Positions 5,701-58,680 of a stretch of DNA of 64,000 nucleotides are shown here, in pieces. The notes beneath the pieces were generated by a model that was given only the letters and a program-made list of their open reading frames with translations, did not search any database and was not told the DNA's origin. Made by a program: the position numbers and the translations under genes. Each line of letters starts with the position of its first letter. Within the stretch, counting starts at the first letter, position 1. The DNA is from Nitrospinota bacterium (GTDB lineage: Bacteria > Nitrospinota_A > UBA7883 > JACRGQ01): positions 671 to 64,670 of the forward strand of contig JACQEX010000074.1 of NCBI GenBank assembly GCA_016200345.1, read 5' to 3'.

Positions 5701-7312
5701 CAAGAAAGTGGACAAGACGATAGCCAAAGTAAGGCACTCCACTCCGGGCGTGGGGCTTATATCCCCGCCGCCGCACCACGACATTTATTCAATCGAGGAT
5801 TTGGCACAGCTGATTTTTGACCTTAAGAACGCCAATAATCGAGCGAGGATTAACGTAAAACTCGTCTCCGAGGCTGGCGTAGGCACAATCGCCGCCGGAG
5901 TTGCAAAAGGCCACGCGGAGGCGGTCCTCATTTCGGGGCATGACGGCGGAACGGGAGCCTCGCCCCTAAGCTCGATTAAACACGCCGGTCTCCCATGGGA
6001 GCTTGGCCTTGCCGAGACCCACCAGGTGCTTATGAGGAACGACCTAAGAAGCAGAATTGTGGTGCAGGCCGACGGAAGAATTATAACCGGGCGGGACGTG
6101 ATGATTGCCACACTGCTTGGGGCCGAGGAGTGGGGCGCCGCGACGACCGCGCTTGTCTCCGCCGGTTGCATAATGATGCGAAAGTGCCATTTGAACAACT
6201 GCCCGGTAGGGGTTGCCACACAGGATCCGGATCTTAGGAAGAACTTCATGGGCAAGCCGGAGCACGTCGTAAACTTCTTCATGTTTTTGGCGACGGAGCT
6301 GAGGGAGCACATGGCAAAGCTCGGCTTTAAAACCGTGAACGAGATGGTCGGAAGGACCGACAAGCTAAAGGTCAAGGACAACATTACGCACTACAAGGCG
6401 AGGCACGTGGAGGCCGGTAAACTTTTGACCCAGGCGAAATCAAGCGTCTGCGCACCCTACTGTTGCGAGAGGCAGGATTTCGGGCTTGACGGGGTTTTGG
6501 ACCACCAACTTATCGCGTTGGCGAAACCGGCGTTGGAGTCCGGCAAAAAAGTCGCCGGCGAGTTTAAAATCAGAAACGTCAACCGCGCGGTCGGCTCGAT
6601 GCTTTCCGCCGAAATTTCGCGCAAGTACGGCGAGAACGGACTGCCCGACGACACGATAAAAATTAAGCTTACCGGAACGGCGGGGCAAAGCTTCATGGCG
6701 TTCGGCGCGAAGGGGATGACGTTCGAGCTGGAAGGGGAGGCGAACGATTATTTTTGCAAGGGGCTTTCCGGCGCAAAGGCCGTTCTTTACCCGGACAAAC
6801 GCTCCAAGTACAAGGCGAACGAAAACGTGATACTCGGAAACGTCGCATTCTACGGCGCCACCAGCGGGGTCGCGTTTATTCAGGGAATGGGCGGAGAAAG
6901 ATTCTGCGTTAGAAATTCCGGCGCAAACGTGGTGGTCGAGGCGGTGGGAGACCACGGTTGCGAATACATGACCGGGGGAAGGGTTGTCATACTCGGCCCG
7001 GTGGGCAAAAATTTCGCCGCCGGAATGAGCGGAGGAATAGCGTATATTTTGGATTTGGACGGGGCCTCGCGACCAAGGGTCAACAAAGGCCTCGTAGGGC
7101 TGGAAGGCCTTGTGGACGCGGAGGAGGTTGACTTCGTAAAAGGTTTTATCGAGCAACATTTCAACCACACGAACAGCACGCACGCGAAATGGGTGTTGGA
7201 CAACTGGAGGGACGTTCTCCCCAAGTTTATCAAGGTGATGCCGGAGGATTATAAGAAGGTTCTGGAGGAAACGTCCGCATTGACTAAAAAAGGAGTTGTG
7301 TCGGCGGTTTAA
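2750..7312 (+). CDS. gltB: glutamate synthase large subunit
   Basis: N-terminal amidotransferase motif [14 protein letters not shown] with the nucleophile Cys after the initiator region. 1520 aa with FMN and GXGXG domains. The probable real start is the ATG at 2777 (MSEEKINEG...). Confidence 0.95.
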
Positions 7313-7332
7313 AATCGTCGGATAATAAGTCT

Positions 7333-8799
7333 ATGGGAAAAATAAACGGCTTCAAGGAATTTAACAGAAAAACCCAGCAGTACCAGCCTGTCGAGCAGAG
7401 AATAAAAAATTATTCCGAGTTCGTGATACAACTCGCCGAAGGAGAGTTGCAAAACCAAGGAGCAAGATGTCTGGAGTGCGGCACTCCGTTTTGCCAGCCC
7501 AACTGCCCGCTTAACAACGTGCCGCCGGATTTTAACGACCTGGTTTTTCGCGGCAAGTGGCGGGAGGCGTTAAAAGTCCTTCTAAGCACGAACAACTTCC
7601 CGGAGTTTACGGGCAGACTCTGTCCGGCGCTGTGCGAGGCCGGTTGCGTGCTTGGTTTGATAGACAAACCGGTCACCATCAAGAACATCGAGCTTTCGAT
7701 AATTGAGCGCGGCTTTAGGGAAGGGTGGATTAAACCCGAGCCTCCCGCGCATAGAACGGGAAAAAAGGTGGCCGTTGTCGGATCCGGCCCGTCGGGTTTG
7801 GCCGTTGCCGCCCAGTTAAACAAAGCCGGACACGAGGTTACGGTTTTCGAGAGGGCGGATAGAATCGGCGGACTGCTAAGATACGGCATACCGGATTTTA
7901 AACTGGACAAAGGCGTCATTGACCGGCGCGTGGCCGTAATGGCCGGGGAAGGGGTCAAGTTCGTTACAAGCGCGGACGTGGGAAACACCGTTTCCGCGAA
8001 AAAGATTAAAAGCGAGTTCGACGCGGTTGTTCTCGCCGCCGGCGCCACCATTCCGCGCGATTTGCCGATACCGGGCCGGGACGCTAAAGGCGTGCACTTC
8101 GCCGTGGAATTTTTAAGGCAAAACAACATGCGCGTCGCCGGCGACGTAATCCCAAAACGGGAGGAGATTCTTGCCACGGGAAAACACGTGCTTGTAATTG
8201 GCGGCGGCGACACCGGCTCGGATTGCGTCGGCACATCCATACGGCAGGGAGCCGCGTCCGTCACGCAAATCGAGCTGTTGGACAAACCTCCGGCCTGGAG
8301 AACCGAGGAGACAAAGTGGCCGACCTTCCCCGGCCCGAAAATGCTTTCCACATCCACCTCGCAAGAGGAGGGATGCACGAGGGAGTGGTCGGTTTTGTCC
8401 AAGGAATTTCTTAAGGATGACAAAGGAAACCTGACCGGAGTAAGACGCGTTCAGTTAAAGTGGATAAACAACGCCAAGTTTGAGGAAGTTCCCGGCTCCG
8501 AGGCCGTGTACAAGGCGGACCTCGCATTTTTAGCGATGGGCTTTCTGCACACCAATCCCAAGGGGGTTGTGGGGGAGCTTGGTTTGCAAATTGACGCACG
8601 GGGAAACGTCCAAACGGACGGCGGATACCAAACGAACGTCCCCGGGGTTTTTGCGGCGGGCGACGCCAGAAGGGGACAGTCCCTCATCGTATGGGCCATA
8701 TCCGAAGGGCGCGAGTGCGCCAGGGCGGTTGACGTTTATCTTTCCGGCTCCACTAGGCTGGAGTCAAAAAACCAAACGCTAAGCGACTCTCTCCGCTAA
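7333..8799 (+). CDS. gltD: glutamate synthase small subunit (NADPH)
   Basis: Two Cys clusters ([24 protein letters not shown]), a FAD/NAD Rossmann motif [15 protein letters not shown], and a 4-nt-scale gap after gltB. Confidence 0.9.
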
Positions 8800-27740: not shown

Positions 27741-27864
27741 TGGTAGCAACGGGATTCATCCTGTTGTTGCGCCCGTAGGGCGCAAGGCAGGCTAAAGCCC
27801 GCCGCCACCAATTCGTGTTGGTGCATGCACCGCCCGTAAAGGAGGTGCTGGGACACCACACTAG
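27741..27864. repeat. family 1 repeat, copy 2 (A-B in direct order)
   Basis: tggtagcaacgggattcatcctgtt…gcgcccgtagggcgc…gccacca followed by attcgtgttggtgcatgcacc…ctgggacaccacactag. Starts 5 nt after the lexA stop, 75 nt before tRNA-Val. Confidence 0.6.
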
Positions 27865-27938
27865 ACATTTAAATTGGTAAATATTCTTGGCCTATTTTCT
27901 GACATTTTCAGGATATAATCCCCCTTCTTTTGAGAGTC

Positions 27939-28014
27939 CGGGCGAATAGCTCAGTTGGTAGAGCGCCAGCCTTACAAGCTGGATGCCACAGGTTCGAGCC
28001 CTGTTTCGCCCACC
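27939..28014 (+). tRNA. tRNA-Val (anticodon TAC), CCA encoded
   Basis: GGGCGAA acceptor stem, D-arm TAGCTCAGTTGGTAGAGCG, anticodon stem-loop CCAGC-CTTACAA-GCTGG, T-arm GGTTCGAGCCC, 3' CCA. A TATAAT box lies about 20 nt upstream. Confidence 0.85.
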
Positions 28015-28318
28015 AAATAAACAAAACAATCCCTCCGGGCATTGTTTTGTTTATTTCATCGGTTTGCGACAGGGCTCGAAAGCAAACTCCCGGAGCGAGC
28101 CGGCGAGCTCAAACGGACAGGACGTCCGTTTAGGGAGTTTGTCGGGCCTGATGGAGCAACAACAGGATGTTGTTGCGAGAGCAGGCGACCCTGTTTCGCC
28201 CACCAAATAAACAAAACAATCCCTCCGGGCATTGTTTTGTTTATTTCGTCGGTTTGCGACAGGGCTCGAAAGCAAACTCCCGGAGCGAGCCGGCGAGCTC
28301 AAACGGACAGGACGTCCG
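27998..28318 (+). repeat. two 131-nt direct repeats (27998-28128 and 28188-28318, 1 mismatch) separated by 59 nt
   Basis: Each unit comprises the last 17 nt of tRNA-Val (ccctgtttcgcccacca), the terminator hairpin, and ~70 nt downstream. The second unit carries only the tRNA 3' fragment. Confidence 0.8.
28015..28056 (+). terminator. rho-independent terminator after tRNA-Val
   Basis: aaacaaaacaatccctccgggcattgttttgttt hairpin followed by a T-rich tail. An identical copy lies at about 28205-28246. Confidence 0.6.
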
Positions 28319-28404
28319 TCCCGGCCTCTGACACAAGATTTAATACATCACCGACGATGCTGACCAATTTGACTATTTCTATCGGGGCGCATATCATTTT
28401 CTTT

Positions 28405-29127
28405 ATGAAAAACATACTAAACAAATTGCGCGGAAAGAACCTCAGGATTTTTCTATTTTCAGTTTTTTTTGTAGTGGCGCATTCACCAATTGAAACCTAT
28501 GCCGCAGACACTACAAAAATTGGCCCTGCGGAAAAGGTTGCAAACTCTTACGACTCCTTGACTATAATCACGATCTTTGCAATTTTTCTTGCACCTGTAA
28601 TAGCTATACAGGCGCAGGTGTACCTTGAGCAAAAACGGGAGAAAAAACGAGGCAAGGCACAAGTATTTATTACGTTAATGGCAACTAGGGCCACACCAAC
28701 ATCTGCCGCATCGGTTGAGGCATTAAACCGCATAGACATCGCTTTCCATAAGGACAAAAAAATTAAAGATGCATGGCGAGCCTTGCTTGATGTTTACGAC
28801 AATTTTCCAAAAGATATTAACGACGGCGATTATTCTCGCAAACTACAGTTGAGCAACGAAAAGGCCGTGGAAGAGCGCATAAATTTATTATATGAAATGG
28901 CACAGTCGTTAAAATTTGATTTTGACAAGGTTCATCTGAAGAGAGCGTGTTACTACCCTGCAGGACATAATTTCCTTGAAAATGAGCAGAGCATAATCAG
29001 AGGAGGCCTGGCACAAATTTTGACGGGCAACAAGGCATTCCCAATTTTTCTTGTAAATCCAACCAATCAACCTCCTGCGGAAGGCCATAACGAAAAAGGC
29101 CCAAAAGAAATAGCCAACAAGTCATGA
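28405..29127 (+). CDS. hypothetical secreted/membrane protein
   Basis: Signal-peptide-like N-terminus MKNILNKLRGKNLRIFLFSVFFVVAHSPIETYA, one further TM helix, Lys-rich linker. Low-GC gene. The upstream part of listed ORF 28042.. runs across the tRNA duplicate and terminators and is discounted. Confidence 0.5.
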   Translation: MKNILNKLRGKNLRIFLFSVFFVVAHSPIETYAADTTKIGPAEKVANSYDSLTIITIFAIFLAPVIAIQAQVYLEQKREKKRGKAQVFITLMATRATPTSAASVEALNRIDIAFHKDKKIKDAWRALLDVYDNFPKDINDGDYSRKLQLSNEKAVEERINLLYEMAQSLKFDFDKVHLKRACYYPAGHNFLENEQSIIRGGLAQILTGNKAFPIFLVNPTNQPPAEGHNEKGPKEIANKS

Positions 29128-29412
29128 ATTTTTACTTCTTGAGACAGTTGCTGGTTTCTCCTCGTAAGTAAATGGCCAGTAATAGCATGACGAATGACGA
29201 GTTGGTGAATCTGCTCGGCAAGGCGGCCAAGAAGTTTCAAGGGGATTCGACGACGCTTTAAAGTGCCATAGGAATGCTTGTCCTTGGCGGTCATGTGGAC
29301 TGGCGAGTAAATTTACTAATTTGCGACAAATATGCAACAGCATCTGCCCTGTTTCTCCCGCCAAATTCAAGCCGAATTTGACTATTTTTCGGGATGCGCA
29401 TATCATCACGTC

Positions 29413-29718
29413 ATGGACGCGCTGGTTGAAAGAGTGACGAAAAAAATTGCGGAGAAGATACACCCGGACAAAATTATTTTGTTCGGGTCACGCGCAAAAG
29501 GCACGGCCACCGAGGAAAGCGATATTGATTTAGTCGTTGTCTATTCTGGCCCCAAGTCCGTCCGAGAAGTGGAAGTTGAAATTGACTGGCTTTTTATGCC
29601 GAGGGATTTTTCAATGGACGTCATCGTCATTAATCCGCAATATTTGGAGAAGTACAAAAGGATTGCAAATACCCTTGCCCGCGAGTTGGCTGAGAAAGGG
29701 GTCGTTTGTTATGGATGA
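29413..29718 (+). CDS. nucleotidyltransferase (MNT) antitoxin-like protein of a HEPN/MNT pair
   Basis: ILFGSRAKGTATEESDIDLVVV is the NTP_transf_2 signature. Listed ORF starts at 29332; the ~101-aa product from the ATG at 29413 (MDALVERV…) is more typical. Confidence 0.7.
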   Translation: MDALVERVTKKIAEKIHPDKIILFGSRAKGTATEESDIDLVVVYSGPKSVREVEVEIDWLFMPRDFSMDVIVINPQYLEKYKRIANTLARELAEKGVVCYG

Positions 29719-30034
29719 GGACAAGCGGATTACTGTTGGACATTGGTTGACCAAAGCGGAGAATGACATGGAAATGGCGCAACGCGCATTAGAGTGGGCG
29801 CCTATTATTACCGATATGGCCTGTTTCCACGCCCAGCAGTGCGCCGAAAAATCATTAAAGGCCTTTCTCGTTTTTATGGACAGCCACGTTGACCAAATCC
29901 ATGACTTGGGCAAACTGGTTGGAAAGTGCGACGTCCTCGACCCCTCATTTTCTAACCTACATCCTCTGGTTGCAGGCATGACGCGATACGCCGTCAAAGA
30001 CCGCTATACCGATGATTGGCGGGAAATCCTTTGA
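29711..30034 (+). CDS. HEPN-domain protein, C-terminally truncated by a 19-bp tandem duplication
   Basis: ATG overlaps the MNT stop (ATGGATGA). HEPN-like helices (…AQQCAEKSLKAFLVF…). The duplication of gattggcgggaaatccttt (30014-30032 / 30033-30051) creates TGA at 30032-30034. Without it the frame runs to 30125. Confidence 0.65.
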   Translation: MDEDKRITVGHWLTKAENDMEMAQRALEWAPIITDMACFHAQQCAEKSLKAFLVFMDSHVDQIHDLGKLVGKCDVLDPSFSNLHPLVAGMTRYAVKDRYTDDWREIL

Positions 30035-30154
30035 TTGGCGGGAAATCCTTTTGGATGAAGCTCGGGAGGCCGTGTATAAAGCTGAAAAAGTTATGTCTTT
30101 CGTTAAAGGGAAAATAGAATTTTAACGGCATGGGGATGCGGTGAGGGACGAAAA

Positions 30155-31231
30155 ATGGCAACACATAGAACATTAATCGCGGCGTTTGTTTCCGCCATTC
30201 TCATTAGCGCGGGAATTGCCGGCGCCGACTGCGGTTTTCTTGAGGACAGGCCCCAGCCCAAATGGGTCGCCGAAGTCCCCGTACTCGAGGGTTTTTACGT
30301 CGGCGTCGGCTCAGCCGGAAAGGGAAATAGCCAGCAGGAGCAGGAGAACGCCTCCCTTTTAAACGCGCTCTCCTACATCACCAGCCAGGTCTCCGTGAAA
30401 ATAAATTCCAAGTCTTCCGACGTGTCCAGCTCCACATCCAAAGGCTCCAGCGAACAGACGAGCCAGAGCGTGGAATCCAAGGTGGAGTTAAAATCCGAGG
30501 AGCTTTTAAAGGACGTGACCATCATTGAAAAGTGGCTGAACGGCAACTCCTGCCAGCTTTACACATTGGTCAAAGTCCCCAAGGATTCCGTCACCGCAAA
30601 CAAAAATTATAAGAAGATGACCTTCCTTTACGCGCAAAGCCAGAAATCCGGACTTCAGGCCAACGAGTCGCTTGGCTATCTGACCGAGGCGAAGGCCCTG
30701 TTGCCTGAGATTAAGTTCGCGTTCATTCACGAGCAGAACGATCCTAAATACTGGGCGGAACTTATAGACAAGGCGATTGAGAGGTGCCAGGCCGAGGTGG
30801 GCAAAAAGAAAAACGTAATCATGCTGGTCATGAAAAAGAACCCGAAGCCGGAGGAGGCGGTTACCATACCCCTGACCGTCGTTCAAAAGCTTGCGGCGTA
30901 CATCGCCGGGCTAAACCCGGTGTGGACCGACATGTCCAACTCCCCCTGCGTGTCGGTCGAGTCATGCCTGGAAAAAGCCAGAAAAACCGGCGTTGAAGGC
31001 GTATTGGTTTTAATCTGCTCCGGCGGTTCAAAACAGAGCAATCTAGGCTCGTTCAAGGGAACGCTGACGGTCGAGATTTCCCAATACGACCTCAAACTCA
31101 ACACGAAGGCCGGCACCCCGCAGTTATTTTCATCCGCAGTTCCGTCCCCGTTTTCCAAGGAGGAGCTCGACTGGAATTTGGCCGTTGAAAAACTGATAAA
31201 CAGCAAAAAACTGGATTATTTAAAAGACTAA
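30155..31231 (+). CDS. lipoprotein with LPP20-like N-terminal domain
   Basis: Signal peptide with Cys (…GIAGADCG). PKWVAEVPVLEGFYVGVGSAGKGN resembles LPP20/FlgP-type lipoproteins. Confidence 0.55.
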   Translation: MATHRTLIAAFVSAILISAGIAGADCGFLEDRPQPKWVAEVPVLEGFYVGVGSAGKGNSQQEQENASLLNALSYITSQVSVKINSKSSDVSSSTSKGSSEQTSQSVESKVELKSEELLKDVTIIEKWLNGNSCQLYTLVKVPKDSVTANKNYKKMTFLYAQSQKSGLQANESLGYLTEAKALLPEIKFAFIHEQNDPKYWAELIDKAIERCQAEVGKKKNVIMLVMKKNPKPEEAVTIPLTVVQKLAAYIAGLNPVWTDMSNSPCVSVESCLEKARKTGVEGVLVLICSGGSKQSNLGSFKGTLTVEISQYDLKLNTKAGTPQLFSSAVPSPFSKEELDWNLAVEKLINSKKLDYLKD

Positions 31232-31337: not shown

Positions 31338-34300
31338 TTGGGGATGAAGAAACTTTTAGCGCTAGCTTTTTTCCTCTGTTTTTTGGCCGGCGTGGTTGCG
31401 TTTGCCGACGAAGAAACCCCGCCCACCCCGCCGCCCGCCCCAGCTGAGGAAAAAAAGGAAGCGCCGGCAGGCAACAATACGGAGGCCCCGCCGCCCCAGA
31501 CAATAGAGAAACCGGCGGCGGAGGCAAAGCCCGCGGTTCCCGAAAAACCCGTCGTCGTTCTTTTGCCAATCACGATGAAGGGGGTCTCGGACATGGAGCT
31601 TTCCGTCTTCCGCGACGCCCTTGCCGAAAGCCTTTCAGCCAAATACCAGGTCAAGTACGGCGAGCAGACCGACAAGATTATCGAGGAGATATTTAAGTCG
31701 CACGCCGCTGATTCGCTGGAGAGCGACGAGAGCGTTTCCTACAAGGACGTGGTAGCCACATTGGACGCGACGCTCATTGGAAAGGCAACAATATTTGAGA
31801 AAGACGGGGACTACCACATAAGCGTGATAGTCTATAACGTAAACGAGAACAAGGCGGAGGTTTCGCGCACCGCTAATTGCGAAAAATGCACGACGGCGGA
31901 ATTGGAGACCAAGCTAAAAGAGACGGCCTCGGGCGTAAAAATCGCCCCTGTCGCTCCCGAGCCGCCACCCGCAAAAGCCGCGAAGACCAACGACACGGAA
32001 CTTACATACTGGGCCAGCATCAAGGAAAGCACCAACCCGGAAGATTTCGAGTCCTATTTGCAGGATTTTCCAAAAGGCTCTTTTACCAACCTTGCAAAAT
32101 CCCGAATAGTGAAGCTGTCGAAATTGAACCCCAAAAAGGTGGTGTCCACCGTTCCGCCGGTAATTGTTCACACCCCGGCCAAGACGGCGATAGACTCCAC
32201 AAGCTTTGTCTTAAAGGCCAAAATTACGAAAGAGACCGGGGTTGTTGCTTCCGCATTTGTGTACTTCAGGCGAGGCATACAGGATTTTATCAAAGAGCCG
32301 CTTGTTGCGGGGGCCGGCGGTCAATACGAGTACAAGGTGCCGCAGGAATTCATGAAAAGAGGCAAGTTTGAATATTATCTAGAAGCCACGGACGAGGCCG
32401 GGAACATGGCGCGGGCCGGAAAAGCGTCCGAGCCGCTTATTACGAGAATTATACAAATACTGCCCTATTCCGAGGGGATGGTCGCCGACCGTAAGCGCGA
32501 CGGCAAGGATTTGACCATCAACGTTGGAACGCTTGCCGGCGTTAAAAAGGGGGATATTCTTTTTGTAATACGGGCTGACGAAAAGGTTATTGACCCTGTT
32601 ACAAAGGAGGTTTTAAGCGTCCGACAGGTTCTTGCGGGAAAAATTAAGGTGGTCTCAGCGTCCGAACGAACCTCCGCCGCGCGCGTGGAGGACGAGATGA
32701 AACACGAGACCATAACGCCGGGAATGATCGTTCGGGCGCGAAACGACATTGTTTTAAATATCTCCGGCTCCACAAGCCAATTGAGGCGCGTTGACCTTTC
32801 GTGGGAACGCTCAAGCGAGCCGGAGGCGGACGGTTACGTGATTTATCGCTCATCCGAACCTGATGCAGGCTACAAAAAAATTGGACAGGTAAAAGAGCCG
32901 GAAATCACAACCTATTCGGACATAGACTCGAAGTCCAACCAATTAAAGGACGCCACCGTTTATTACTATCGCGTCGTGGCGCTAAACGAGGCCGGCGGCG
33001 AGGGGAACGTTGGCGAGTCCGTGGCCGTTACGACAAAAGGCGGGCCGGAGGGGCCGGAGACGATATCGGCGGTATCCGGTGAAATTAGGCAGATATCTTT
33101 TTCGTGGTCGCAGGCGCATGACACCGACGTGGCCGGATATATTTTACAGATGGGCTCCGCCGACAAAGGCGCCTTTACCGATGTTACGACCCTAAAAGGC
33201 GCCGACAACGTGAAATATGTCGCAAAAAAATCCAAGGAAGTGGATTTGGAGGACGGCAAGCAGTACCAATTCCGACTTGTTCCGTTCAACAAGCTTGGAA
33301 CAAAGGGGAAGCCATCGCGAACGGTTGTGGCCTCGACGCACGGCAAGCCGGAAAAGCCGAAGCCGCCCAGAATGGAGAAGGCGTTTGTGCGTAGTTTCAC
33401 CATTGCGTGGGACGCGCACCCCGACAAAGGCGTGGTTGGGTACGCCCTTTATCGCAAGGACCCGATCGCGAAGGAGTTCAAAAAGATTTACGAGGGGAAC
33501 GCGAAAACCCTGTCGTATATCGACAAGGGGAACCACCTACAGGACGGCGTGTCTTACCTGTACGCCGTATCCGCGTCCATCGGAGGCGGAATCGAAAGCC
33601 CCCTTTCCGACGGGGTCGAGACGAAAACATTCGGGGCGCCGGAGACCCCGACCGGACTGACGGCCTCCGAGGGAAAATACCGCGAAATTCTACTCGGATG
33701 GGAGCCGATTAAGAAAGAGGAAATCACGGGTTATGAGATTTACAAAATGGACGGAACCAAGGCCGTTTCGCTGACAAAAATATCCGGCAAGGAAAAGGCC
33801 TCTTACAGCGACAAGTCCAAACTTTTGGACGGCAAAACCTACCAGTACAAAATTGCCAGCTTTAACGTGGCGGACGTCCACAGCGCGCTTTCCGAGGCGG
33901 TTCAAGGCGCCACCAAACCGGTTCCGGCGAAGGTGCAGGGGCTTGTCGGCACCAGCGAGGAGGTTAAGCAAACGAAGCTCGAGTGGACAGCGAATGCGGA
34001 AAAGGACATCAAGACTTACGTTGTTTGGAAAAGCGCGGAAGAGGCCAAAAAGGGCTCCACTGCGGGCGACACAAAAACCGCGTCATTCACGGCGAAAAAT
34101 CTTGACGACGGCGGCGCCTACTATTTCAGGGTCGGGGCGACAGACGCGGACGGGCTGGAGAGCGAACTTTCCGACCCGGTGAAAATTACCACCAAGCCTT
34201 TGCCGGGCGCCCCCGGGTCTCTTACGGCGACTCCGACAGCGACGTCGGTGGCCCTATCATGGAGCGCCTCCCCCGCATCCGACGTGGTCAAGTACAACGT

Positions 34301-34475
34301 CTACAGCCAGGGGATGATTTCCGGAACGTTGGTCGGGAGCACCGATTCCACAACGCATGAAATTACCCAGGATATCAAGCCGGACAGTTCCTACACGTTT
34401 GTGGTCAAGGCCGTGGACTCCACGGGCCTGGAAAGCAAACCATCCCAGCCTGTAAAAGTGAAAACCCCCAAATAA
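31338..34475 (+). CDS. large secreted protein with >=6 fibronectin type III-like repeats
   Basis: Signal peptide. Pro/Ala/Glu-rich linker. Repeated ~90-aa modules (…DGYVIYRS…YYYRV.A.N..G…, GYILQ…, GYALYRK…, GYEIYKM…, YVVWKS…, YNVYSQ…). Confidence 0.7.
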   Translation: MGMKKLLALAFFLCFLAGVVAFADEETPPTPPPAPAEEKKEAPAGNNTEAPPPQTIEKPAAEAKPAVPEKPVVVLLPITMKGVSDMELSVFRDALAESLSAKYQVKYGEQTDKIIEEIFKSHAADSLESDESVSYKDVVATLDATLIGKATIFEKDGDYHISVIVYNVNENKAEVSRTANCEKCTTAELETKLKETASGVKIAPVAPEPPPAKAAKTNDTELTYWASIKESTNPEDFESYLQDFPKGSFTNLAKSRIVKLSKLNPKKVVSTVPPVIVHTPAKTAIDSTSFVLKAKITKETGVVASAFVYFRRGIQDFIKEPLVAGAGGQYEYKVPQEFMKRGKFEYYLEATDEAGNMARAGKASEPLITRIIQILPYSEGMVADRKRDGKDLTINVGTLAGVKKGDILFVIRADEKVIDPVTKEVLSVRQVLAGKIKVVSASERTSAARVEDEMKHETITPGMIVRARNDIVLNISGSTSQLRRVDLSWERSSEPEADGYVIYRSSEPDAGYKKIGQVKEPEITTYSDIDSKSNQLKDATVYYYRVVALNEAGGEGNVGESVAVTTKGGPEGPETISAVSGEIRQISFSWSQAHDTDVAGYILQMGSADKGAFTDVTTLKGADNVKYVAKKSKEVDLEDGKQYQFRLVPFNKLGTKGKPSRTVVASTHGKPEKPKPPRMEKAFVRSFTIAWDAHPDKGVVGYALYRKDPIAKEFKKIYEGNAKTLSYIDKGNHLQDGVSYLYAVSASIGGGIESPLSDGVETKTFGAPETPTGLTASEGKYREILLGWEPIKKEEITGYEIYKMDGTKAVSLTKISGKEKASYSDKSKLLDGKTYQYKIASFNVADVHSALSEAVQGATKPVPAKVQGLVGTSEEVKQTKLEWTANAEKDIKTYVVWKSAEEAKKGSTAGDTKTASFTAKNLDDGGAYYFRVGATDADGLESELSDPVKITTKPLPGAPGSLTATPTATSVALSWSASPASDVVKYNVYSQGMISGTLVGSTDSTTHEITQDIKPDSSYTFVVKAVDSTGLESKPSQPVKVKTPK

Positions 34476-40138: not shown

Positions 40139-40891
40139 TTACGCGCCCCCTTTAAGGTAGATTACCGAGGGATCCAAGCCGTGCTCCTCGAGCAGGCGAT
40201 GGCGGCGTTTGCTCTTGGAAAGCTCCGCCACCTTGCTTTCGGGGTCGTCCAGATAGCCAAAGGTTATCGCCTTTGTCGGGCACGACTGGGCGCAGGCCGA
40301 AACAACCTCGCCGTCTTTGACCCCCCTCCCCTCGTCCTTGGCCTTGTCTTTGCCGCGTCGAATTCTTTGCATACAGAAGGTGCATTTTTCCATGACTCCG
40401 ACTTCACGAATTGAAACGTCGGGGTTTAACTGTTGCTCAAGCGGAGCCTCCCACTTGGAATTGAACCAGTTGAATTTTCTAACTCCGTACGGACAGTTGT
40501 TGGCGCAGAACCTAACGCCCATGCATCGGTTGTAGACCATGGCGTTCAACCCGTCCGGATTGTGGTAGGTGGCAAAAACCGGGCAGACCGGTTCGCACGG
40601 CGCCTTGCCGCACTGCTGGCACGGCATGGGCAAAAACACCACCCTAAGCTCGGGCCACTCCCCCTCGAAATACCGCTCGACCCTAAGCCACGACATGGTC
40701 CGTTTTTCGCGGGCCATTTTTTCGCCAACGACCGCTATGTTGTTCTCGGCCTGACAGGCGATGGTGCACGCGCCGCACCCGTTGCATTTGTCCAGGTCAA
40801 TGACCATGGCCCACTTATGATATTCGGTGTTAGAGTTGAAAGACTTCACCTTCGTAATCTCCTTTGGGGTTGCCTTCCCTAATAATTTCAA
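40139..40891 (-). CDS. actB: alternative complex III FeS subunit (ActB2; four-cluster ferredoxin)
   Basis: Multiple CxxCxxCxxxCP motifs (CNGCGACTIACQAEN…). Start ambiguous (40891 or the ATG at about 40810, MVIDLDKC…). Confidence 0.8.
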   Translation of the reverse strand: MKLLGKATPKEITKVKSFNSNTEYHKWAMVIDLDKCNGCGACTIACQAENNIAVVGEKMAREKRTMSWLRVERYFEGEWPELRVVFLPMPCQQCGKAPCEPVCPVFATYHNPDGLNAMVYNRCMGVRFCANNCPYGVRKFNWFNSKWEAPLEQQLNPDVSIREVGVMEKCTFCMQRIRRGKDKAKDEGRGVKDGEVVSACAQSCPTKAITFGYLDDPESKVAELSKSKRRHRLLEEHGLDPSVIYLKGGA

Positions 40892-57151: not shown

Positions 57152-57793
57152 ATGAAAATAGAAACCCTGTGCGTCGGCCCGATAGACGTAAACTGTAGCG
57201 TGGTTTATTGCGAGGAGCACAAGTCCGCCATCATCGTGGATCCGGGCGACAGCTCGGCGCGCATAATAAAATTCGTCGAGGACAACGGCCTTAAACCCGG
57301 CATGGTCGTTGTCACCCACTGCCATGCGGACCACACGGGGGCGGTGGCAAAAATCGTGGAGCATTTTGGGGTGCCGTTTCTTTGCCACGTCGGGGACGAG
57401 TGGATGATTGACAATCCCGAGCAGAGGGAGATGTCGAAATACCTCGGCCTGAAACCGCCGCCAAAAAACGACTCCACCGTTGCCGACGGCGAAGTTTTGG
57501 ACATATGCGAGGATTTTTCGTTGAAGGTCATTCACACGCCCGGGCACACTCCCGGCGGCATCTGCCTTTTGGGAAACGGGATCCTATTGGCCGGGGACAC
57601 CCTCTTCAAAACCTCCATCGGGAGGTCCGACCTGACCGGGGGCAACCACGACGCTCTGATTAAGTCCATCAGGGAACGCCTGTTCGTCCTGCCGGACGAA
57701 ACCGTAGTTTGTCCCGGACACGGGGACGCGACGACCATCGGATATGAAAAGGCGCACAACCCTTTCCTGAGGCAGACCGAAGGTTACAGCTGA
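57152..57793 (+). CDS. MBL-fold metallo-hydrolase (glyoxalase II-like)
   Basis: THCHADHTG metal-binding motif; ~210 aa. Confidence 0.8.
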   Translation: MKIETLCVGPIDVNCSVVYCEEHKSAIIVDPGDSSARIIKFVEDNGLKPGMVVVTHCHADHTGAVAKIVEHFGVPFLCHVGDEWMIDNPEQREMSKYLGLKPPPKNDSTVADGEVLDICEDFSLKVIHTPGHTPGGICLLGNGILLAGDTLFKTSIGRSDLTGGNHDALIKSIRERLFVLPDETVVCPGHGDATTIGYEKAHNPFLRQTEGYS

Positions 57794-58680
57794 TGAACGA
57801 ACTGTTGGACGATTGGTTGTCCCACCTTGCCGTGGAAAAAAACCTTTCGGAAAACACGATATCCGCCTATCACCGCGACGTGGCGGAATTTCTTAAATAT
57901 TTCAAGGCTGAAACGGACGAAACGCTCGCAAAAGTGCGGTCCGGCGACATGGTGCAATACTTTCGGTCTTTGATGACAAAAAAAATCTCCGCCCGTTCGA
58001 GGGCGAGAAAACTTTCGGCAATCCGAATGTTTTTCCGGCACCGCGTGGCGGAAAAAAAATGCGAGGCCAGCCCCGTTGAGACCATGGAGGCCCCCTCGTC
58101 GGCGAAGTACCTCCCGCGAACCGTCAACACGGAGCAGGTGAATTTGCTTTTAAACGCGCCGGACGGGACGACGGACGACGGCGCGAGGGATTCCGCGATG
58201 CTGGAGCTACTCTACTCCACCGGTCTGCGCGTGTCGGAGCTTGTCGGGATAAAAACGTCGGACATAAACTTCACCGCCGGATACCTCGTGACAATGGGGA
58301 AAGGCGCCAAGGAACGGCTGATACCGGTCGGCGAACGCGCGATTGAAAAGATTAACAAGTATCTCGCGCTCAGGCCGTCCGTGTTGAAAAAGTGGGAAAA
58401 TCCGAGGGAGTTGTTTCTGACCCGCCTCGGAAAACCGATGACGCGCCAGATGTTCTGGCAGTTGGTTAAAAAGTACGTTTTAAAGGCCGGGCTTAACCCC
58501 GACATATCCCCCCACTCGCTCCGGCATTCCTTCGCGACGCACCTTCTTGAAAACGGGGCCGACCTGCGGGCGGTGCAGATGATGCTCGGGCACTCCAGCG
58601 TCACCACAACCCAGATATACACCCACATAAACCGGACGCGACTGGCCGAAGTTCACGCGCGAACGCACCCAAGGGGCTGA
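57793..58680 (+). CDS. xerD: tyrosine site-specific recombinase XerD
   Basis: N-terminal SAM-like domain (…LSENTISAYHRDVAEF…). Catalytic R…HSLRHSFATHLL…LGHSSVTTTQIYTH with the terminal Tyr. Confidence 0.85.
   Translation: MNELLDDWLSHLAVEKNLSENTISAYHRDVAEFLKYFKAETDETLAKVRSGDMVQYFRSLMTKKISARSRARKLSAIRMFFRHRVAEKKCEASPVETMEAPSSAKYLPRTVNTEQVNLLLNAPDGTTDDGARDSAMLELLYSTGLRVSELVGIKTSDINFTAGYLVTMGKGAKERLIPVGERAIEKINKYLALRPSVLKKWENPRELFLTRLGKPMTRQMFWQLVKKYVLKAGLNPDISPHSLRHSFATHLLENGADLRAVQMMLGHSSVTTTQIYTHINRTRLAEVHARTHPRG

Follow-up and report, generated by a model that had tools for sequence, protein, structure and literature searches.

The window (the whole stretch of 64,000 nucleotides that was analysed) carries an intact tRNA-Val gene whose 3' end is repeated further downstream (Table 1). 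A repeat search and blastn detected two direct copies of 131 nt (copies 1 and 2; 130/131 identity, E=1e-68), and the sole difference between them is an A at 28057 in copy 1 versus a G at 28247 in copy 2. When the cloverleaf is numbered from 27940, the left end of the repeat is C60, the final T-loop base of tRNA-Val, and the repeated tRNA portion (17 nt) consists of the 3' strand of the T-stem, the 3' strand of the acceptor stem and CCA. The repeat runs from the T-loop border, which is a crossover sublocation of integrases, through the tRNA 3' end. The 17-nt core (CCCTGTTTCGCCCACCA) is followed by the trailer sequence AATAAACAAAACAAT, and each copy contains an A/T-rich terminator-like hairpin with 73 nt of trailer after it. 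These findings bear out a sequence-only reading of the locus, which had described a repeated tRNA 3' end with its terminator, a trailer of about 70 nt and one mismatch (its coordinates were one base off), as well as a 59-nt spacer with a hairpin of its own (GCAACAACA-GGA-TGTTGTTGC, 28156-28176).

Table 1. Coordinates of the features at the tRNA-Val locus (positions in the window unless a contig is named)
Feature	Position	Strand	Description
tRNA-Val (anticodon TAC), intact	27940-28015	+	ARAGORN; Rfam tRNA model, 76.9 bits
tRNA-Val, T-loop	27993-27999	+	
tRNA-Val, T-stem 3' strand	28000-28004	+	
tRNA-Val, acceptor 3' strand and ACCA	28005-28015	+	
Repeat copy 1 (A1)	27999-28129	+	17-nt tRNA end, terminator-like hairpin (28015-28056), 73 nt of native trailer
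Inverted T-arm copy in the copy 1 trailer	28069-28080		ACAGGGCTCGAA
Spacer (S)	28130-28188	+	59 nt; continuation of the native trailer
Repeat copy 2 (A2), internal att-type copy	28189-28319	+	130/131 identical to copy 1; hairpin 28205-28246
D3, promoter-like block	28366-28397	+	TTGACT-17-TATCAT; 7 nt upstream of the DUF6680 ATG
DUF6680-family gene, islet cargo	28405-29127	+	240 aa as annotated; GC ~0.42; Pfam PF20385, E=2.6e-48
Copy 3, outer att-type repeat	29332-29366	+	degenerate partial tRNA-Val, variable loop to 3' end
D3', second copy of D3	29375-29406	+	6 nt upstream of the MNT ATG
MNT-type nucleotidyltransferase gene, putative antitoxin	29413-29718	+	101 aa; Pfam NTP_transf_2 and Polbeta
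HEPN gene, putative toxin	29711-30034	+	107 aa; Pfam HEPN
LPP20-like lipoprotein gene	30155-31231		Pfam
FN3-repeat protein gene	31338-34475		1045 aa
T-arm and inverted T-arm copy, window	27993-28080		
T-arm and inverted T-arm copy, L004	5537-5620		
T-arm and inverted T-arm copy, L081	723-805		
T-arm and inverted T-arm copy, L001	6711-6766		

Foreign DNA of low GC content starts at 28320. GC is 0.42-0.46 across 28250-29750 compared with 0.52-0.60 in the flanks, as is typical of an island. About 1.03 kb of this DNA is located between copy 2 and a third, degenerate copy of the tRNA end (copy 3, described below), and the DUF6680 gene is the only gene in that interval; the MNT-HEPN pair lies to the right of copy 3. 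Thus, the earlier description of a low-GC block with a toxin-antitoxin pair to the right of the repeat holds for the composition, whereas the toxin-antitoxin pair is outside the interval between copies 2 and 3. The DUF6680 protein is 100% identical to HY280_08345 from a groundwater Nitrospinae MAG and had no match in PADLOC or PHROGs. Neither this protein at 240 aa nor LexA, encoded next to the tRNA gene, at 202 aa was on record in exact-protein look-ups. The first ~50 aa of the annotated DUF6680 protein (28405-28560) are a signal-peptide-like N-terminal extension which is absent in homologues of 180-195 aa, and translation may in fact begin at an internal TTG.

MNT and HEPN are adjacent and overlapping genes, as expected for a pair of this type, with the MNT stop overlapping the HEPN start in ATGGATGA. 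MNT homologues in other Nitrospinae MAGs show 76-81% identity. A perfect 19-nt tandem duplication at 30013-30051 (TGATTGGCGGGAAATCCTT, 2.1 copies, detected with TRF) frameshifts the HEPN gene, which encodes 107 aa compared with 131 aa in homologues. Because this frameshifting duplication was found in all four sister-sample contigs, the putative HEPN toxin is probably inactivated. Homologues of DUF6680 and of MNT-HEPN occur in other Nitrospinae MAGs in small accessory contexts, not beside a tRNA gene. An att-like 10-mer (CCCGCCAAAT) shared with the region upstream of the 81% identical MNT homologue in L171 was rejected as not significant (p=0.07).

DUF6680 and MNT are unrelated genes preceded by the same 32-nt promoter-like block (D3 and D3', respectively). 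In both cases the ATG is only 6-7 nt past the -10 hexamer, which suggests that the two genes might be expressed from leaderless mRNAs. In L171 and L172, a TATAGT is likewise found 6-8 nt upstream of the ATG of the MNT homologues. The left arm of D3 (GGGGCGCATAT) agrees at 9 of 11 positions with the XerC arm of E. coli dif; D3 as a dif/XerCD-like site was discarded, the spacing being wrong and D3' having no right arm (by eye).

A search of the window for the 17-mer, allowing up to 3 mismatches, gave 3 matches compared with 0.32 expected by chance, and none of 100 shuffles gave 3. The three copies of the tRNA end start at 27999, 28189 and 29346, all on the plus strand, i.e., the locus has at least three direct att-type sites. 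The last of these, copy 3, is the distal tRNA-end copy that the sequence-only reading had proposed to look for, in degenerate form. Its core (29347-29363) matches the tRNA 17-mer at 15 of 17 bases, the part to the right of the T-loop (29346-29366, GCCCTGTTTCTCCCGCCAAAT) has 19/21 identity, and over its full length (ATGCAACAGCATC-TGCCCTGTTTCTCCCGCCA versus ATGCCACAGGTTCGAGCCCTGTTTCGCCCACCA) 26/33 positions are identical with one gap; none of 5000 shuffles scored as high. Copy 3 extends further in the 5' direction than copy 2, over the entire T-arm, with much lower identity to the left of the T-loop. Such an identity profile is what an attR-type hybrid site would resemble. Copy 2 starts at C60 and the high-identity part of copy 3 at G59, one base earlier. 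The tRNA-end repeats at 28189-28205 and 29347-29363 bracket 1.16 kb, which is hereafter referred to as the islet. The sequence past copy 3 is unrelated to the native trailer, and no fourth copy was found to the right, up to 37 kb. Another candidate for a degenerate tRNA-end copy, just past copy 2 (28320-28365), matched at 14-16 of 27 positions by eye and was rejected (p=0.59 and 0.98).

Profile searches, PADLOC and PHROGs revealed no integrase, excisionase or relic of these in or near the islet, in agreement with the earlier remark that no integrase gene is present nearby. The sole Phage_integrase-family ORF in the 64-kb window (57793-58680, plus strand) is XerC/D-like, also has a SAM-like N-terminal domain and is located about 30 kb away. 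Thus, the islet does not encode an integrase of its own, as a tRNA-targeted element would, and it contains no recombination or transfer genes, as is the case for cis-mobilizable units. When the DNA of the region was compared with phage and plasmid collections and with IMG/VR, only the 17-mer was retrieved. Its exact sequence is present in eight IMG/VR contigs, and in 6/8 it is outside any tRNA gene. In L165 and L166, the tRNA match has the same start base as copy 2, a terminator-like hairpin comes after the match, and L166 has a Phage_integrase-family gene 43 nt downstream of the 17-mer. In L163, a partial tRNA-Val (anticodon loop onward) adjoins an integrase with an Arm-DNA-binding domain. 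Thus, this 17-nt block serves as an integrase core site in real elements, namely in phage contigs where it adjoins integrase genes, and it has the same left boundary there. Crossover sublocations in the anticodon loop and the T-loop are reportedly the rule (Williams 2002). The view of the repeated tRNA 3' end as an att-type footprint, already put forward from the sequence, is the best reading, its left border being that of phage attP-like sites next to tyrosine integrases.

To the right of the tRNA gene, the transcript up to the end of the spacer is predicted to fold as three modules, H1 (27993-28080), H2 (28081-28142) and H3 (28146-28186), and these hairpins are strong (z=-6.8 to -8.5). In H1, the T-arm and 3' end of the tRNA pair with an inverted copy downstream, and the terminator is located inside this module. 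The closing stem of H2, formed by GCAAACTCCC (28081-28090, copy 1) and GGGAGTTTGT (28133-28142, spacer), crosses the copy 1/spacer junction, whereas H3, with the spacer hairpin mentioned above as its inner stem, is within the spacer. An exact complement of 9 nt between the copy 1 trailer and the spacer was seen in 0.6% of shuffles (p ~0.006). The equal-length stretch after copy 2 has no pairing partner, and its fold is 19 kcal/mol less stable. In addition, the native tRNA-Val trailer of L004, a relative with a 70% identical LexA, aligns through the copy 1/spacer junction, with p-values in the range of ~0.001-0.01 (trailer, ~0.001; junction segment, 0.011), and the alignment blocks at the junction are CGGAC.GGA.GTCCG, AGGGAG and CGGGCC, in that order. 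Since the H2 stem and the L004 alignment both cross their junction, copy 1 and the spacer are the native trailer (T1+S, 28016-28188), a single unit beside the tRNA. Copy 2 ends inside H2, without the closing strand, exactly where the low-GC DNA begins.

This continuity bears on the suggestion, made in the sequence-only reading, that an element between copies 1 and 2 had been almost completely deleted. According to this explanation, the copies are attL and attR of an element that integrated at tRNA-Val with a 131-nt identity block and was later reduced to the 59-nt spacer. Two near-identical direct copies starting at the T-loop border would be expected in this case, and attP/attB identity blocks reaching past the tRNA end are reportedly known (Williams 2002). 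However, the spacer completes H2 and is continuous with host trailer in L004, which argues against its being the stub or remnant of a deleted element, and it is copy 2, not copy 1, that is the truncated version. Moreover, a perfect repeat of 131 nt would normally lead to precise loss of the element, leaving one copy and no 59-nt stub. We consider a deleted element improbable.

The inverted T-arm copy (..GGG.TCGAA) is found 40-65 nt downstream of tRNA-Val in four Nitrospinota genomes (the window, L001, L004 and L081), and it is able to base-pair with the T-arm, enclosing the terminator hairpin. None of the 9 predicted pairs is disrupted in any of the four genomes; they show no covariation, as the tRNA side is invariant. 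More generally, L001, L004 and L081 (LexA identity 70-76%) retain the order LexA-tRNA-Val, each with a single core copy and with unrelated downstream genes. The best relative from LexA scans of genome and metagenome contigs had 76% identity, and L176, an 84% relative, has no tRNA-Val beside LexA. In L004, the region 5791-8587 contains an opposite-strand PIN_3, an 88-aa partner ORF, an FRG-domain protein and an RNase_H-like exonuclease, and no integrase. The downstream ORFs of L081 resemble housekeeping genes (by eye). The finding that tRNA-Val is followed by accessory genes in L004 too suggests that this site might be a recurrent insertion hot spot in the lineage. No empty site or alternative allele was found among the distant relatives scanned, and the same-population contigs all carry the islet. 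An old degenerate tRNA-end copy past the trailer of L001, L004 or L081, suggestive by eye, was rejected (p=0.12-0.9).

It is also possible that copy 2 arose by a local, integrase-independent duplication, in which 131 nt were re-copied 59 nt downstream when replication switched templates or a break was repaired among the dense hairpins of this region. Copy 3 would then be an unrelated, older integration scar. The three strong hairpins would favour polymerase stalling, no integrase is present, and the 99% identity of the copies implies a very recent event. Short similarities are found at the junctions: copy 2 is preceded by CGA, which also occurs in the T-loop, and the insert has CCC at each end. 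The right junction has no usable microhomology. When copy 2 is left out and the spacer is joined directly to the sequence that starts at 28320, weak alignments with L001 and L081 are obtained (p ~0.007-0.01); these alignments, however, are gappy and fail correction for the number of comparisons. A simple segmental or tandem duplication would likewise give two near-identical direct copies 190 nt apart. However, copies 1 and 2 make up only 1.69 units of 190 nt across 321 nt rather than two complete head-to-tail units, and no such tandem array was present in the TRF output, so the tandem duplication offered as an alternative in the sequence-only reading is not a clean one. The second copy has no spacer and stops at the compositional break, where the foreign DNA starts, and a third, diverged copy is located 1.16 kb away. 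Furthermore, the left end of copy 2 is the same base as in L165 and L166 and is within 1 nt of the start of the high-identity part of copy 3; for a random breakpoint, such a coincidence would have a probability of ~1-2% (a rough estimate, not a computed figure). This boundary coincidence is the main argument against duplication, which we rank below an array of att-type repeats and regard as unlikely but worth keeping in view.

Logan contigs (k=31 assemblies) from the sister samples SRR12113409, -10, -11 and -13 were recovered by exact-protein look-ups. L174 (99.93% identity) ends at 27775 and L175 (100%) at 27770, both inside a MITE-like repeat just past LexA, whereas the first base of both L177 (99.95%) and L178 (100%) is 28290, which places their start exactly 30 nt to the left of the copy 2/foreign junction. 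The latter two contigs reproduce this junction and, to its right, the DUF6680 gene, copy 3 and the MNT-HEPN pair with its truncated HEPN gene. As the k=31 assemblies break at the end of the repeat, its last 30 nt must have two continuations in the reads, which fits the structure in the window and also fits two co-existing alleles. For ORFs spanning the spacer junctions, exact-protein look-ups returned no record. It should be noted that the near-perfect 131-nt repeat breaks short-k assemblies here, which matters to users of these MAGs.

These data also relate to the question of whether the tandem structure is an assembly artefact, i.e., whether two strains (trailer-spacer and trailer-DUF6680) were stitched together in a metagenome-assembled contig. 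The window does match a MAG contig, the k=31 sister assemblies branch exactly at the repeat end, as they would with two continuations on either one or two molecules, and the independent sister assemblies confirm the right junction of copy 2, not the spacer/copy 2 junction. On the other hand, no more than 3-4 bases are common to the spacer end and the T-loop, and a de Bruijn chimera would thus be unlikely to form without real reads. The one-base difference between the copies splits the repeat into exact blocks of 58 and 72 nt, which can be spanned by 150-nt reads, and argues for two real copies. The right junction and its flank are found at 99.95-100% identity in up to four sister-run assemblies, two of which span the junction. 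An artefact is, in our view, very improbable.

Several other features were noted in the course of these comparisons. A MITE-like element of ~158 nt with terminal inverted repeats CTAGTGTAGTGTCCCAG and CTGGGACACTACACTAG is located at 2570-2727, and a rearranged partial copy of it (27741-27868, 94-95% identical) fills the LexA-tRNA-Val intergenic region; it is within this copy that the short-k sister-sample assemblies break. The spacer hairpin has a 14-nt match to the MITE-like repeat upstream of the tRNA (blastn-short, E=0.34). ARAGORN also called a tRNA-Ala with the unusual anticodon AGC at 40578-40653 (minus strand), inside a Fer4-domain gene (a call in L177), which is probably a false positive.

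Taken together, we give roughly even odds (a probability of about 0.5) to the explanation that att-type repeats form a tandem array at this tRNA-Val insertion hot spot, where site-specific recombination in trans left an integrase-less islet. The layout would then be tRNA-Val core, native trailer and spacer; a second core with truncated trailer and the DUF6680 islet; and a degenerate core followed by MNT-HEPN and the DNA beyond. Two earlier versions of the locus might have existed, one in which an old att copy came after the full trailer, and another in which the DUF6680 insert had truncated the trailer. A recombinase supplied in trans, and absent from the window today, could have joined the two alleles, or an excised circle of the truncated one, at their att cores, by tandem accretion or secondary-site integration. 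Copy 2 starts at the T-loop/T-stem border, the place where tRNA-targeting tyrosine integrases cross over. The outcome would be an internal att site (copy 2) with an integrase-less islet between it and copy 3, the latter being an older, degenerate tRNA-Val 3' fragment. Such a history would explain the left boundaries of copies 2 and 3, the perfect copy 2 versus the degenerate copy 3, the native trailer proximal to the tRNA, and the compositional break together with the missing integrase. The three copies with their boundaries, the structural link of copy 1 to the spacer, the change in composition and the lack of an integrase are observed directly; that an integrase made the junctions, and in this order of events, is what we infer from these features.

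Besides the missing integrase and the lack of an empty-site allele among the relatives and contigs scanned, two observations speak against such an att-type array. First, the order is non-canonical: integration at a tRNA gene should shift the native trailer to the far end of the insert, whereas T1+S adjoins the tRNA. The model therefore requires either two alleles or a secondary att site. Neither of these was observed, nor was a recombinase or a circle junction. Second, ordinary excision would not take along host-type trailer, yet copy 2 holds 114 nt of it. A far-reaching extension of the att-array reading, which we regard as a long shot, is that the tRNA-Val trailer serves in this lineage as a dedicated gene-capture platform, loosely integron-like. 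Integrase-less cassettes (DUF6680; MNT-HEPN), each with a tRNA-end att copy and the 32-nt promoter block, would be shuffled by a recombinase acting in trans, and the inverted T-arm copy would be part of the recombination site.

According to this analysis, tRNA-Val is a hot spot for the insertion of small accessory and defence-type genes in an uncultured groundwater Nitrospinota lineage. The locus also indicates that tRNA-gene islands can be reduced to islets with a single gene and no integrase, and most island finders would overlook these. Since att-repeat scars and integrase-less islets at tRNA genes are already known, the locus points to no new mechanism; an insertion scar at a tRNA gene is ordinary in itself, and it is the arrangement of the copies that is somewhat unusual. 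The native trailer beside the tRNA makes the locus a useful test case for models of accretion and secondary-site integration.

With the phage attP-like sites of L163, L165 and L166, the window has the identical 17-nt core in common. The flanks of these sites, however, are unrelated to the window's trailer or cargo, and the L163 and L166 sites have an adjacent tyrosine integrase gene, whereas the window site has none. The tandem islands at ssrA in Dehalococcoides differ from the locus in several respects. The islet is tiny (1.16 kb, one gene), the identity of the two proximal copies extends 114 nt beyond the tRNA and thus covers host-type trailer, the native trailer is kept beside the tRNA rather than pushed outward, and a cognate integrase was not found in the 64 kb of the window. 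The ssrA islands have direct repeats of the gene's 3' end at their boundaries, with insertion in the T-loop (PMC3146451), and at both loci direct repeats of a structured-RNA 3' end, starting in or at the T-loop, bound low-GC inserts, with at least three att-type copies on the same strand and some units without integration genes. Such units at ssrA have been regarded as cis-mobilizable elements formed by accretion (PMC3146451), a model developed for ICESt1/CIME and attributed there to Pavlovic et al. 2004 (ref. 54 in PMC3146451), and the islet at tRNA-Val may be comparable to a cis-mobilizable element of this kind.
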